DNA of 64,000 bases from Pseudomonadales bacterium (GTDB taxonomy: Bacteria > Patescibacteriota > Microgenomatia > UBA1400 > PJMF01), in NCBI GenBank assembly GCA_020632265.1, contig JACKFW010000001.1:663272-727271 (forward strand). Reading direction: 5' to 3'. Both the position numbers and the translations under genes were made by a program. Positions 3,334 to 8,550 of this stretch are shown here, piece after piece. The notes under the pieces are model-generated. The model was given only the letters and a program-made list of their open reading frames with translations, was not told where the DNA came from and ran no database searches. Positions within the stretch are counted from its first letter, which is position 1. Every line of letters starts with the position of its first letter.

Positions 3334-3485
3334 GGTTAATGATAGACTAAGTATTTTTGCAAATCATTGTCGTAATTAAGCTAAAGATTTATAGTTAAGA
3401 TTTAGATTTTATTTTTAACCTTATAAAAACAATTGAAAATACTTATAGTAACAATTTATTTAATTGCCACAAAAAAGCGCTTAAT

Positions 3486-3601
3486 TCTGGCCTCGACCTA
3501 TCTTCACACACAGTTGCCCGTGCACTATTGTCAGCGCTGAGGCGTTTCAAGACTCTGTTCGGGAAGGGAAGAGTTGGTTCCACCTCGCTCTAGAGACCAG
3601 A
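3486..3601 (-). rRNA. rrf: 5S ribosomal RNA
   Basis: The reverse complement reads TCTGGTCTCTAGAGCGAGGTGGAACCAACTCTTCCCTTCCCGAACAGAGTCTTGAAACGCCTCAGCGCTGACAATAGTGCACGGG...GTGTGAAGATAGGTCGAGGCCAGA. It carries the conserved CCGAAC, loop E and helix I (9-bp terminal pairing TCTGGTCTC/GAGGCCAGA). Confidence 0.85.
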
Positions 3602-4206
3602 ATTAAACGCTCTTAAACGCGCTTTAAGCTCCTCACACATTCATTAAGGTTTTATATTATGCCTCTCAAAATGCTTAATTAGTTTAAAGCAATTTTCATT
3701 TTTCATATTTTATAGAAGCTAATGCCCTATTTTACTATGAAAAATACTTATTAAATTGTTAATCGGACTCGCGCACAATAGTATTGTGCACATAAATCTA
3801 TTTTAGAGTTGTAGTTCGATTTAAATCGAACTACAAGTATCTTTGAAACTTGCCGGCCCAAAAGGCTGGAGCTTCATAATAGACTTGGACTCTAACAAGT
3901 GAAGAAAATCTGCCATGTGTCAAAACAATATAGTAAAATTCCAATAAATTAAAACCTTAGTTGATATAAACACAGCAACCATGCTTTTGAAGTTTGAAAA
4001 TTAGCTTATTAGGTCGTATAAATTTGTATTGGTAAACCAATGTAAATTTCACAACTTGTAAACATTTTATCAACCAACAAAATATGAAAATTATGTTCGA
4101 TCAACACTTAGTATAGTTAGGCTTAGCCTGTCACCAGGCTTACACCGACTACCTATCAACGTGGTGTTCTCCCACGGGTCTAATGGAGATAGTTAATCTT
4201 GAGATT

Positions 4207-4239
<33 letters not shown>

Positions 4240-4367
4240 ACAAGGAATGTAGCTACCCTGCAGTGCGCTTGACAGCGACAACAGGAACACTAGGGATTCC
4301 CTCACTCCGGTCCTCTCGTACTAGGAGCAAATTCTCTCAACTATCTAACGCTGACAGCGGATAGAGG

Positions 4368-4407
<40 letters not shown>

Positions 4408-4428
4408 GCTTTAATAGGCGAACAGACT

Positions 4429-4479
<51 letters not shown>

Positions 4480-5052
4480 AGCAAACCGCGCCGACGCTAG
4501 GGACGCTTAGGCGCGATGACTCTGTTATCCCCGAGGTAACTTTTATCCGATAAGCCCGGTGTCTTCCACAAAACACACGAGGATCACTATAACCTGCTTT
4601 CGCAACTGCTCGGCTTGTATGCCTCACAGTAAAGCATTCTTATGCTATTGCACGTCCAGCCTGATTTCTATCCAGGCTAAGAATACCATTGCGCGCTTGC
4701 GTTACTCTTTAGCAAGCAACCTCCCCAGTTAAACTACCCACCAGACAGTGTTCTTTCACACGTTTGCAGTGTGATTAAGTTAGATGATAAATACAAAACG
4801 GGCGGTATTTCACTGGTCGAAACCGTCATAAATGAAGGTTTCTCCCGCCTATTCTAAACAATTGCATATTCACCGTCAGTGCCAAGTTGTAGTAAAGCTC
4901 TACGGGGTCTTTTTGTCCTGCTGTCAGTAGGCCGCATCTTCACAGCCATTTCAATTTCGCCGAGTAATAGTTCAAGACAGTATGAGGCTTGTTAAACCTT
5001 TCGTGCGGGTCGCCAATTAAGCGACAAGGAACTTCGCTACCATAGAACAGTT

Positions 5053-5800
5053 CATTATTGTTACTCCATTAAGCTTAACGTTCAATTAAACTTAAATTAT
5101 GGGGGGGTGTGGTTATTTCTACCACACTCCTTATGTCTCCATAAGGATCGGACTATATCATCTCAAACCTAAGTTTGAGGTTAGCGTATAGTCTCTGAGG
5201 ATTCTGACAAAATGTCTTTTTTAGTGTACTTTCTGGTGCGACCAGCTCCTACATTGATTTTTTCTCTTAGATCCACCAATTCTTTTAAACCAGCTTCAGT
5301 TAAATGTTCTTTTGCAAACATTAAATTTACAGCTTTCTTAAAAATTGCGAAGTTTTTCTTTTTTATCTGAGATAAAAATTTGTATTTAGTGAAAAAGGGT
5401 AAAATAAACTCTTTTAGCACTTTTGGATTGGTCACATCATAAGAGTGTAAACCATCATTTCTTACTTTAATAATGCCACACTTAAAGTGTTGCTTCATTA
5501 AAGCCAAAATGGTTCTTTCTCTTTGAGAAACATTAAAACTTAGTACTGGCTGCCAGCCAGTTTTATAATCATCTTTCTTTCGAAAAGAAATATTAAAACT
5601 TCCTTCTCCATCTACAAAGCCTGATATATACCAAGCAATATTGGTGGGAATTTGATTATAATTTATCATTTTGTTAGTCTTTCCTGCTGATTGTCTCTAT
5701 TCAATCGATTGTTACTACTGATTCATATTTTATCAGCAGTACGATTGACCTGTCAAGATTTTCCAGCATATAGCTAACTTTTTTAACTACAATTGTACTC
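5053..5800 (-). mobile_element. Group I intron in 23S rRNA domain IV, inserted at the GTAACTAT^AACNG site (near E. coli position 1923-1931, the I-CeuI-type site). It carries a homing-endonuclease ORF.
   Basis: Exon continuity is broken. The upstream exon ends ...CCCCGGTGAACGGCAGCAGTAACTAT and the downstream exon resumes AACTGTTCTATGGTAGCGAAGTTCC. The intron shows S-element-like GATATAGTCCGATCC and R-like GAAAGACTAAC, and ends in G before the 3' exon. Confidence 0.75.
5181..5669 (-). CDS. LAGLIDADG homing endonuclease (single-motif, I-CreI-like size, 162 aa) encoded within the 23S group I intron
   Basis: The motif YISGFVDGEGSFNISF is a canonical LAGLIDADG/dodecapeptide. The ORF lies entirely inside the 23S interruption and is preceded by AAAATG. 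Confidence 0.85.
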   Translation of the reverse strand: MINYNQIPTNIAWYISGFVDGEGSFNISFRKKDDYKTGWQPVLSFNVSQRERTILALMKQHFKCGIIKVRNDGLHSYDVTNPKVLKEFILPFFTKYKFLSQIKKKNFAIFKKAVNLMFAKEHLTEAGLKELVDLREKINVGAGRTRKYTKKDILSESSETIR

Positions 5801-6552
5801 ATAGTTACTGCTGCCGTTCACCGGGGCTTCGATCAGAGGCCTTATCTAATAAATTAGATAAAACCCCCTCAATTAACCTTCCGGCACTGGGCAGGCTTCA
5901 GCCCGTATACTTCCTCTTACGAGTTTGCACAGACCTGTGTTTTTGGTAAACAGTCAACCTCATGACATTCACTGCGCCTCTTCAATCCGAAGATTAAAGA
6001 GGAGGGCATCTCTCGAAATTACGCCCAGCTGTTTTGCCGAGTTCCTTAAACTATTTTCTCTCGCTCTCCTTGGTCTACTCGACCTGACTACCTGTGTCGG
6101 TTATCGGTACGATTTGATTAGAATCTCCTTGCGAAGCTTTTCCAGGATAATGAAATCACACATAACTCTTCTTCCCGAAGGAATTGGAGCCCTATAACAC
6201 CTCAGATAAACGCCTGAACGGATTTGCCTATTCAGACTGCTTTAGTGCTTCGAAGCAACATTCACCGCTGCTCATATGATATCCATCACCGTCCCTCCCC
6301 AAGTCAAATGATCCTAACCAAGGACTGGAATATTAGCCAGTAATCCATCGGCTACCCCTCATTAACGAGGGCTCACCTTAGGGTCGCCTAACCCGCACAC
6401 GACGAACGTGGGTGCGGAAACCTTGGTCATTCGGAGTCGGGGATTCTCACCCCAATTTCGCTACTCATGCCGGCATTCTCACTTCTGATCGCTCCACCAA
6501 CTCCTCACGGGTTGGCTTCAAAGCACACAGAACGCTCCCTTACCGCTCCACT

Positions 6553-6760
6553 GCAGAACAAAATTAGCTATAATAATTAATTCGAATTTCTTAAATCCGA
6601 ACAATTAATTTAAGCTGAATTCTAAAAGAATTCAGACTAAATATTCTCGCGCTATATCGTGATTTGAAACTCTTCACGCTTCATCACAATTCTCGCGCTA
6701 TATCGTGATTTGCAAAAATCCCAATGTTGCGATTATTTAACTCTCTTTGTTCTGCAGCAG
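6553..6760 (-). repeat. AT-rich expansion insertion inside 23S rRNA (helix 45 region, domain II). It is closed by an inverted repeat and contains two copies of a 24-nt direct repeat.
   Basis: The flanks CTGCAGAACAAAG ... CTTTGTTCTGCAG form a long stem. ATTCTCGCGCTATATCGTGATTTG occurs at 6644-6667 and again at 6690-6713. The conserved 23S sequence GGAGCGTTCTGT resumes immediately outside. Confidence 0.6.
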
Positions 6761-8476
6761 AACCCTAAGCTTCGGTTACATATTTGAGCCTCGTTGGATT
6801 TTCAGCGCATTATTCCTCGGCTAGTGAGCTGTTACGCTTTCTTTAAAGGATGGCTGCTTCTGAGCCGACCTCCTAGGTGTGTTAGGAATAACACTTCTTT
6901 TGCCACTAAATATGTAATTTGAGACCTTAGCTGTAGGTCTGGTTTGTTTTCCTTTTGCTCCTGGAACTTAGCTCCCAGGTGCTGAGTGCTACGAAACATT
7001 ACGGGGTATTCGGAGTTTAACTAAGCGCTTAAGCTTTCGCTCAAGACACCAGATCAGTGCTCTACCCCCCCGCAACTTCACGTAACCCTATACCTAAATA
7101 TATTTCAGGGAGAACCAGCTATCTCCGGGTTCGATTGGCATATTACCTCTTACCACAACTCATCCGAGCATCTTGCAGCATACACCGGTGCGGACCTCCA
7201 CCTCGATATTATCAAGGCTTCATCCTGGTCATGGTAAGCTCACCCGGTTTCGGGTCATTCAACAACTACTAGTTCGCGCTATTCACGCTCGCTTTCACTA
7301 CGGCTTCGACACGGAATGTCTTAACCTAAACGCAATTGTCAAATACTCGCCGGCTCATTCTTCAATAGGCACGACATTACAGTATAAATACTGCTTTGTC
7401 TGATTATTAGCAGATGGTTTCAGGTTCTATTTCACGGGGTCTTCAACCCTTCTTTTCACCTTTCCCTCACGGTACTCGTTCACTATCGGTCTTATCTGGT
7501 ATTTAGTCTTGGAGTGTGGTCACCCCAGCTTCAGAAGGGAGTTTGCCGTCTCCCAACCTACTCAGGAACACTCTATCGCTTTATTAGATTTCGCTTACGG
7601 GATTATCACCCTCTTTGATCACCTATTCCAAAGTGTTCTTCTATCTTCTAAAGACGAATGTTGAGGTCCTACAACCCCAGAATAAATTCTGGTTTGGACT
7701 GATCCCTTTTCGCTCGTCGCTTACTCAGGGAATCTCTTACGATTTATTTTCCTCCGCCTACTTAGATATTTCAGTTCGGCGGGTTACCCACCTAAATATT
7801 AAATTTAGGGCCATCATGATCTCTCATGATGTGATTTCTCAATTCGGACACGGTCGGATCATAACTTTTTCCCAGTTACCCGACCACTTTCGCGGGGTTA
7901 GCGTCCTTCCTCGGCCAGATAAGCCTAGGCATCCACTATCTGCATTAATTCACATAAATTTCATTTATATTTGATAAGCTTGCTATAAACACGAGCTTGC
8001 GCTGTGTCATAGACTTTAGCATGTGAAACTATATTATATAGTTTCGATTTGTAGCATATATATTTTTTATTTTTTTTGTAATTTCAAGACGAAAAATTTG
8101 TACAAAGTACAAATTAAGTTGAAATTTTTAAAAAGATGCATGGCCACTGATGATTAAATCATCATTTTGACCTATACATGACAGTTTTCTTCACTTGTTA
8201 AAGATCAAATCTATTTTTGAAAACGAGTTTAAGTTACCTCAAACATTTATGCTTTCTAATTTGATTTCAAGGATTTAGGTTTATACAGCATTTTAACTTT
8301 GAGAGTCCAACTGTATCGTAACCACCTTATTTTTTAGCAATAATTAGTTGCTAAATGTTAGTTCTCAGTAAAACCTGGTGAGGTAAAACCAAAGAACTAA
8401 TATTTAATCACCAATCTTGCTTAAATCTGCCTAAAACTAATTAATCTTGCCAAACAGCAACCAAACCTTAAGAATG

Positions 8477-8550
8477 TGGACCCTAAGGGAGTCGAACCCT
8501 TTACCTCTTCATTGCAAATGAAGCGCTCTAGCCAGGTGAGCTAAGGGCCC
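8477..8550 (-). tRNA. tRNA-Ala (anticodon UGC), immediately upstream of the 23S gene
   Basis: The reverse complement GGGCCCTTAGCTCACCTGGCTAGAGCGCTTCATTTGCAATGAAGAGGTAAAGGGTTCGACTCCCTTAGGGTCCA folds as a cloverleaf with a G3:U70 pair, anticodon loop TTTGCAA and a TTCGACT T-loop. CCA is not encoded. Confidence 0.9.

Follow-up and report, generated by a model that had tools for sequence, protein, structure and literature searches.

Group I introns that lie at site L1917 of the 23S rRNA gene and carry LAGLIDADG genes have been described from Synechococcus sp. C9 (743 nucleotides [nt], encoding 181 amino acids [aa]) and Thermotoga subterranea (774 nt, 168 aa) (Haugen et al. 2007; PMC1995217). In bacteria of the candidate phyla radiation (CPR), insertions were reported in 82% of 23S genes (Tsurumaki et al. 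2024; PMC11270868), with position 1917 (23IS6) being a frequent insertion site and among those at which LAGLIDADG_1 proteins, mostly single-domain, predominate. According to the same study, the CPR enzyme I-ShaI cuts its own insertion site and dimerises, and CPR rRNA inserts are, as cited there from earlier work, removed from transcripts. Here, we analyzed a 64,000-nt stretch of a Patescibacteriota genome (contig JACKFW010000001.1, positions 663,272 to 727,271; hereafter, the window), in which the only 23S gene of the genome is interrupted by a 748-nt insert. We conclude that this insert is very probably a member of the known L1917 family of mobile group I introns, residing in the loop of helix 69, spliced, and carrying the gene of a homing endonuclease. 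The intron is real but ordinary, as introns of its type are known from precisely L1917.

Compared with the introns of Synechococcus C9 and T. subterranea, that of the window has the same site, a similar length, and a single-motif LAGLIDADG open reading frame (ORF) starting in P6 and running into the core, and it shares with them the lack of P2 and a complex P5 region (PMC1995217). In contrast, its ORF ends in P3' whereas that of Synechococcus C9 ends in P9, its protein (162 aa) is shorter than those of both published introns, and its host is a CPR bacterium. This likeness is drawn from the description in PMC1995217 and from a Thermotogota relative presented below (locus L003), rather than from the published introns' own sequences. 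With CPR site class 23IS6 and with I-ShaI, the window element shares host group, site class, Pfam family, and single-domain form, and in both cases group-I-like sequence flanking the ORF appears only at a relaxed cmscan E value; however, I-ShaI was assigned to the neighbouring site class 23IS7 rather than to 23IS6 (PMC11270868), and the window protein is known from sequence.

The complete 23S gene occupies window positions 4087 to 7959 on the minus strand and measures 3,873 nt (Rfam LSU_rRNA_bacteria, 2240 bits, model positions 1 to 2925); this model matched only once in the whole assembly, indicating a single 23S gene. The conserved 5' exon runs to ...GCAGCAGTAACTAT, with its last base at 5801, and the 3' exon restarts at 5052 with AACTGTTCTATGGTAGCG (in the rRNA sense, AACTGTTCTATGGTAGCGAAG). 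Global MAFFT alignment against rrlH of E. coli MG1655 placed one 748-nt insertion at 5800..5053, between E. coli U1917 and A1918, i.e., at L1917 in the helix 69 loop of domain IV. Removing it joins the exons into the 29-mer GCAGTAACTATAACTGTTCTATGGTAGCG, the predicted ligated junction being GUAACUAU followed directly by AACUGUUC. An exact copy of the 29-mer occurs in four same-order genomes whose 23S gene is uninterrupted (G148, G245, G367, and G393), and both other genomes of the family have it with a single mismatch. Because the bases flanking either boundary differ, only one cut position restores the conserved exon, and because GCAGTAACTATAACTGTTCTATGGTAGCG is uninterrupted in relatives, the insert is a discrete element whose ends are fixed to the base and which is not found in the nearest relatives searched. 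An initial annotation of this DNA had described a 23S gene of about 3.86 kb, broken at these same bases in domain IV, which our alignments bear out; the gene is of CPR type. It had also assigned the insert to an I-CeuI-type site, which has to be corrected: the insert follows U1917, whereas the large-subunit (LSU) site targeted by I-CeuI is 1923 (PMC3315327), six nucleotides off. The difference is of consequence, since site is the basis on which rRNA introns and their endonucleases are classified.

Sequence features identify the insert as a group I intron: U.G pairing marks its 5' splice site, its last base is G, and P1 and P3 to P9 covary (Table 1). A hand-drawn structure comprising P1, P3, P4, P5, P6, P7 (crossing P3), P8, and P9 was scored on an alignment of 15 L1917 introns (A1). 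Standard pairs filled 97.1% of 680 cells, and changes on both sides were found in 25 of the 46 pairs (104 cells). None of 500 shuffled controls attained the pairing or covariation measures, and control structures with partners slid by 1 to 3 columns were 27 to 45% paired, with 3 to 10 pairs showing double changes. More specifically, all five P6 base pairs nearest the closing end covaried, and P7 was paired in 97% of cells with a both-side change in one pair. The splice-site U.G pair was present in all 14 alignment rows having letters there, a terminal G closed 16 of 16 extracted L1917 introns, the 5' exon ended in ...AU in all of them, and the guide GUAGUU was kept in 15 of the 16 examined. 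Likewise, the P10 guide tracked the 3' exon across relatives, GGACCGUU occurring with exon AACGGUCC and GGACGGUU with exon AAUCGUCC.

The minimum-energy fold of the window intron, with the interior of the ORF replaced by a tetraloop, contained P4, P5, P5a, P5b, P6, P7, P8, and P9, together with two further 3' hairpins. P5a, P5b, and P9a come from minimum-energy folds alone, their covariation being unscorable because the alignment is out of register there; hairpins stand at matching places in relatives in the P9a/P9.2-like region. Since P1 is joined to P3 directly by AAAAAA, there is no P2. The core element GATATAGTCCG, which the initial annotation had recognized as S-element-like, lies at 5159..5149.

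Table 1. Features of the L1917 intron and its endonuclease gene, in window coordinates
Feature	Position	Strand	Remarks
Group I intron, 748 nt	5053..5800	-	MAFFT against E. coli rrlH; exons as in uninterrupted relatives
5' exon end UAACUAU, P1 strand in the exon; splice-site U is U1917 (5801)	5801..5807	-	Pairs with GUAGUUA
P10 guide GUACAAUU	5791..5798	-	6/8 positions pair with 3' exon AACUGUUC
Internal guide GUAGUUA, P1 intron strand	5784..5790	-	Pairs with exon UAACUAU
P3 5' strand GUUAGC	5773..5778	-	Both-side changes in 5/6 P3 pairs
P4-P5-P5a-P5b domain	5685..5768	-	Minimum-energy fold of the stretch alone gives all four helices; P4 and P5 covary
P4	5768-5763 with 5690-5685	-	Fold and covariation
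P5	5758-5755 with 5697-5694	-	Fold and covariation
P5a	5748-5742 with 5707-5701	-	Fold
P5b	5741-5733 with 5721-5713	-	Fold
P6 5' strand CUAACAAAAUG, includes AUG of the ORF	5667..5677	-	Pairs with CAUUUUGUCAG at 5214..5204
ORF, 162-aa single-motif LAGLIDADG homing endonuclease	5181..5669	-	P6 loop, on through P6', J6/7, and P7 into P3'
LAGLIDADG motif ISGFVDGEGSF, residues 15-25	5595..5627	-	Invariant residues in homologs
P6 3' strand CAUUUUGUCAG	5204..5214	-	Alignment, covariation, fold
P7 5' strand GACUAUA (R element), also codes part of ESSETIR	5187..5193	-	Pairs with UAUAGUC 5157..5151
P3 3' strand GCUAAC, includes UAA stop of the ORF (5183..5181)	5180..5185	-	Pairs with P3 5' strand
P8 hairpin CUCAAAC-UUAG-GUUUGAG	5162..5179	-	4/4 outer pairs covary
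P7 3' strand UAUAGUC (S element, within GATATAGTCCG)	5151..5157	-	Intron_gpI, covariation
P9 hairpin CCUUAUG-GAGA-CAUAAGG	5129..5146	-	100% of cells paired; both-side changes in 6/7 pairs
Peripheral hairpins	5069..5127	-	P9a 5127-5121 with 5113-5107; P9.2-like hairpin 5095..5069; minimum-energy fold
Omega-G, last intron base	5053	-	G at 3' end in 16/16 L1917 introns

The protein encoded within the intron, for which the initial annotation had reported the dodecapeptide motif GFVDGEGSF, is confirmed as a single-motif LAGLIDADG homing endonuclease: Pfam LAGLIDADG_1 (PF00961) matched one stretch of the 162 aa at 68.8 bits (cut-off 23.1; E = 8.5e-19). Residues D20, G21, E22, and G23 are invariant in 32 homologs, and E22 (5606..5604) is the predicted metal-binding catalytic residue. 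No other LAGLIDADG gene was found in the genome. Comparison with the 90%-identical homolog of a Pacebacteria genome (locus L002) gave a ratio of nonsynonymous to synonymous substitution rates (dN/dS) of 0.09 at a dS of 0.61; thus, the ORF is maintained by selection. J6/7, P7, and P3' (window 5181-5204, minus strand) supply the codons for its C-terminal ESSETIR as well as its stop codon. This peptide is nearly invariant in 32 homologs of 60 to 90% identity, because the catalytic core of the ribozyme encodes it, so that the constraint stems from the RNA and not from the protein; residues 157 to 162 are predicted to be disordered (predicted local distance difference test [pLDDT] <50).

To place the protein among characterized enzymes, we compared it with solved structures by sequence and by fold. 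The top solved relatives in a PDB sequence search were the two-domain enzymes I-SmaMI, I-OnuI, and I-LtrI (I-SmaMI, E = 1.7e-41), followed by weaker matches to I-TnaI (5gkk; 9e-17), I-Vdi141I (7e-14), I-MsoI (4.6e-11), and an I-CreI derivative (8.6e-8). An AlphaFold model, for which 32 sequences were aligned (pLDDT 89, predicted template modelling score 0.83), has a predicted alpha-beta-beta-alpha-beta-beta-alpha core (helix 9-22, strands 23-31 and 39-49, helix 53-62, strands 66-69 and 75-79, and helix 82-95), and Foldseek matched the model with probability 1.00 to I-SmaMI, I-LtrI, I-TnaI, I-Vdi141I, and I-CeuI; I-CreI was not among the matches listed. The I-OnuI/I-SmaMI/I-LtrI group, i.e., monomeric two-domain enzymes of fungal mitochondrial introns, came out closest both in sequence (~40% identity over residues 12-143) and in fold (root-mean-square deviation 1.2-1.6 Å), with both enzyme halves matching the query. 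However, those enzymes are single-chain pseudo-dimers of ~300 aa with asymmetric targets in protein genes, whereas the window protein is one 162-aa domain that must self-pair, and which presumably acts as a homodimer. I-TnaI (Thermotoga neapolitana 23S, L1931), I-Vdi141I (archaeal rRNA), and I-CeuI (chloroplast LSU, 1923) are, like the window protein, single-domain enzymes of rRNA introns near helix 69, matching its fold at template modelling (TM) scores of 0.72 to 0.81 with 26 to 31% identity, but their insertion sites (1931, archaeal, and 1923, respectively) differ. Hence, the earlier description of the enzyme as I-CreI-like holds for its single-motif architecture but not for its kinship.

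We also examined how the element is distributed. Endonuclease homologs numbered >1,200 at E <= 1e-10, matches occurred in 86 of the 401 phylum genomes searched, and the flanks of 32 loci were mapped to E. coli 23S to assign insertion sites. Besides that of the window, the L1917 introns comprised 14 with a gene or remnant of this endonuclease and one that is ORF-less. Of 150 other genomes of the class, 55 were found to have the uninterrupted site (a tally that includes one unpublished genome, G451, on which no conclusion rests), among them both other genomes of the family and four of the five others of the order. Such a sporadic distribution among relatives fits that of a mobile element.

In a tree of 34 endonucleases from the mapped loci, enzymes clustered according to their rRNA site. 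All 14 L1917 enzymes, including that of the window, fell in a clade of 16 (support 100/98) together with one from L1911 and one from L1931. The sister of this clade contained the site-1951 enzymes as one group (98/94), the site-2604 enzymes as another (95/79), four of the five site-1931 enzymes as a third (98/95), and the only enzyme from site 1923 (L015). Thus, the sampled site-1931 and site-1923 enzymes lie outside the L1917 clade, except for the one site-1931 enzyme nested inside it. The closest relative, Candidatus Pacebacteria CG_4_10_14_3_um_filter_34_15 (L002:1374-2850), has a 743-nt L1917 intron encoding the 90%-identical endonuclease. There, L1931 is likewise occupied, by another intron carrying a LAGLIDADG gene that is more distant; no L1931 intron was found in the 23S gene of the window. 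Outside the CPR, the Thermotogota metagenome-assembled genome (MAG) JPMR_metabat.52 has a 774-nt L1917 intron (L003:1352-2125), equal in length to the published T. subterranea intron, that aligns with the window intron throughout the core. The enzyme of this intron is nested among CPR enzymes (94/88), which suggests inter-phylum transfer. Two further relatives have decayed forms, namely, a 502-nt L1917 intron with an endonuclease remnant of 109 aa (L033; G341:C1) and an ORF-less L1917 intron of 323 nt (L022; G125:C13); both fit the gain-decay-loss cycle of homing endonuclease genes.

The remaining excess length of the 23S gene is mostly a second insert of ~200 nt, plus inserts of 29 nt (7647..7675) and 9 nt (5848..5856). 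The second insert (6552..6767, minus strand) follows E. coli positions 1159-1178 in the helix 45 region, has no ORF, and forms a long stem closed by ~19 base pairs (-78.4 kcal/mol, z -7.1); it looks like a classical RNase III-processed intervening sequence site. Rfam further detected a tRNA (8477..8550) and a 5S gene (3485..3601) flanking the 23S gene, giving a unit in the order tRNA-Ala-23S-5S (window 3485-8550), and no 16S gene was seen adjoining this unit within the 14 kb scanned.

Taking the site, pairings, core, terminal G, constrained ORF, and sporadic distribution from the sequence, and the individual steps from established group I and LAGLIDADG biology, we propose the following course. 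The intron would be transcribed within the tRNA-Ala-23S-5S unit and would then fold; free guanosine would attack after U1917, the terminal G would enter the P7 pocket, and the exons would be ligated, restoring helix 69. The ORF would be translated from the precursor or from the excised intron, and the homodimer would cleave intron-less 23S genes around the helix-69 loop (predicted target, GCAGTAACTATAACTGTTCTATGG), with repair copying the intron in, i.e., homing. The protein may also assist folding of the RNA as a maturase.

Several observations weigh against our conclusion. The Rfam group I model (Intron_gpI, RF00028), by which the initial annotation had suggested checking the intron, aligned the R and S elements, P8, and P9 in an 861-nt search, but at 33.7 bits (E = 1e-6), i.e., below its gathering threshold of 50, and a search of the whole genome with this model returned nothing at E <= 1. 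The low score arises because a 489-nt ORF in the P6 loop splits the model and P2 is missing; although the model stays below threshold, group I structure is recovered by the comparative analysis described above, so the outcome that the initial annotation had named as refuting it, a lack of recoverable group I structure, did not occur. The two-fold symmetry of the target is weak (6 of 11 arm positions around nucleotide 1915, odd-centred), so that a homodimer would have to recognize it asymmetrically. The notion of a homodimer reading the helix-69 stem as a palindrome was considered, found to be only weakly supported by those symmetric positions, and is not relied on here. A Shine-Dalgarno-like AGGA stands 12 nt from the AUG, which itself lies within P6; given this spacing and the sequestration of the AUG, efficient translation is not assured. 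Finally, a 23S group I intron at L1931 of Simkania was called "unspliced" by its describers in a title that appears in the reference list of PMC11270868, so retention has precedent.

Among the alternatives, the one that fares best is that the ORF product is mainly a maturase for its own intron and no longer an active endonuclease. Consistent with this idea, the genome has no intron-less target, and purifying selection on the ORF is nonetheless strong (dN/dS 0.09); moreover, the protein of a related Thermotoga neapolitana 23S intron has maturase-like activity (PMC3984707), and I-TnaI is among the best structural matches. However, the catalytic motif is invariant across the family, the sporadic distribution and the Thermotogota copy among CPR copies point to ongoing transfer, and I-ShaI, from CPR, is active as a nuclease (PMC11270868). 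The two activities are not mutually exclusive, and we consider loss of endonuclease function unlikely.

Considerably less probable is that the insert descends from a group I intron and has ceased to be spliced, being either kept as an expansion of helix 69 or excised without ligation, which would leave a fragmented 23S rRNA. The Simkania intron, by its title, would be a parallel, and the intervening sequence-like stem at helix 45 of the same 23S gene makes rRNA processing by cleavage plausible in this organism. In contrast, the core helices, U.G pair, terminal G, and P10 are all intact and covarying, and as this is the only 23S gene in the genome, functional ribosomes require that the insert be taken out. 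A retained insert would disrupt helix 69, which serves as a bridge between the subunits. CPR rRNA inserts are, moreover, stated to be removed from transcripts (PMC11270868), and we regard loss of splicing here as very improbable. That the intron occupies an I-CeuI-type site and encodes an I-CreI-like enzyme can scarcely be upheld: the I-CeuI site is merely 6 nt downstream, I-CeuI matches structurally (TM 0.78, 26% identity), and the protein has a single motif as in I-CreI, but the insertion follows U1917 and not 1923, the sole sampled site-1923 enzyme falls outside the L1917 clade, and I-CreI derivatives match far more weakly (8.6e-8) than I-SmaMI (1.7e-41).

A mobile, spliced L1917 intron thus remains the reading we prefer, and two of its relatives bear on whether this lineage is bound to one site. 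In locus L014 (1320-2040; G026:C8), an endonuclease of the L1917 clade lies in an intron after U1911. There, P1 is formed by GCCGCC with exon GGCGGU, the U.G pair is present, and GUAGUU, the usual P1 guide of the family, pairs as P10 with 3' exon AACUAU, i.e., a 6-nt register shift of the same guide region. Locus L006 (G272:C8; reverse strand, 1-1018) has tandem introns separated by a 14-nt exon (1918-1931). The first, at L1917, is ORF-less and ends in A instead of G, and the second (806 nt, at L1931) encodes an endonuclease whose sister (100/97) is an L1917 enzyme and not the usual L1931 clade. In L006, the cores of the L1917 and L1931 intron families are too alike to tell a move of the ORF from a move of the whole intron. 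On the basis of these two relatives, and not of the window itself, we tentatively raise the possibility that the endonuclease and ribozyme lineage of the window intron is not tied to a single site but shifts among neighbouring helix 69 positions, through guide sliding or through swaps of endonuclease genes between sister introns.

The intron adds 748 nt to the sole 23S gene within a universally conserved stretch. Because the Rfam group I model misses the intron at default thresholds, annotation pipelines, 23S read mapping, and primers spanning helix 69 will mis-handle this lineage unless L1917 is checked directly. Established knowledge of such elements is unchanged by this case, which again shows clearly that a ribozyme's catalytic core can encode the C-terminus and the stop codon of a gene. 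The intron's patchy distribution, with nearest relatives searched that have no intron, a 90%-identical enzyme in Pacebacteria, and a Thermotogota copy among those of the CPR, fits continuing horizontal spread. If site shifting is real and recurrent, CPR 23S genes would offer a natural series on how homing elements change their targets.

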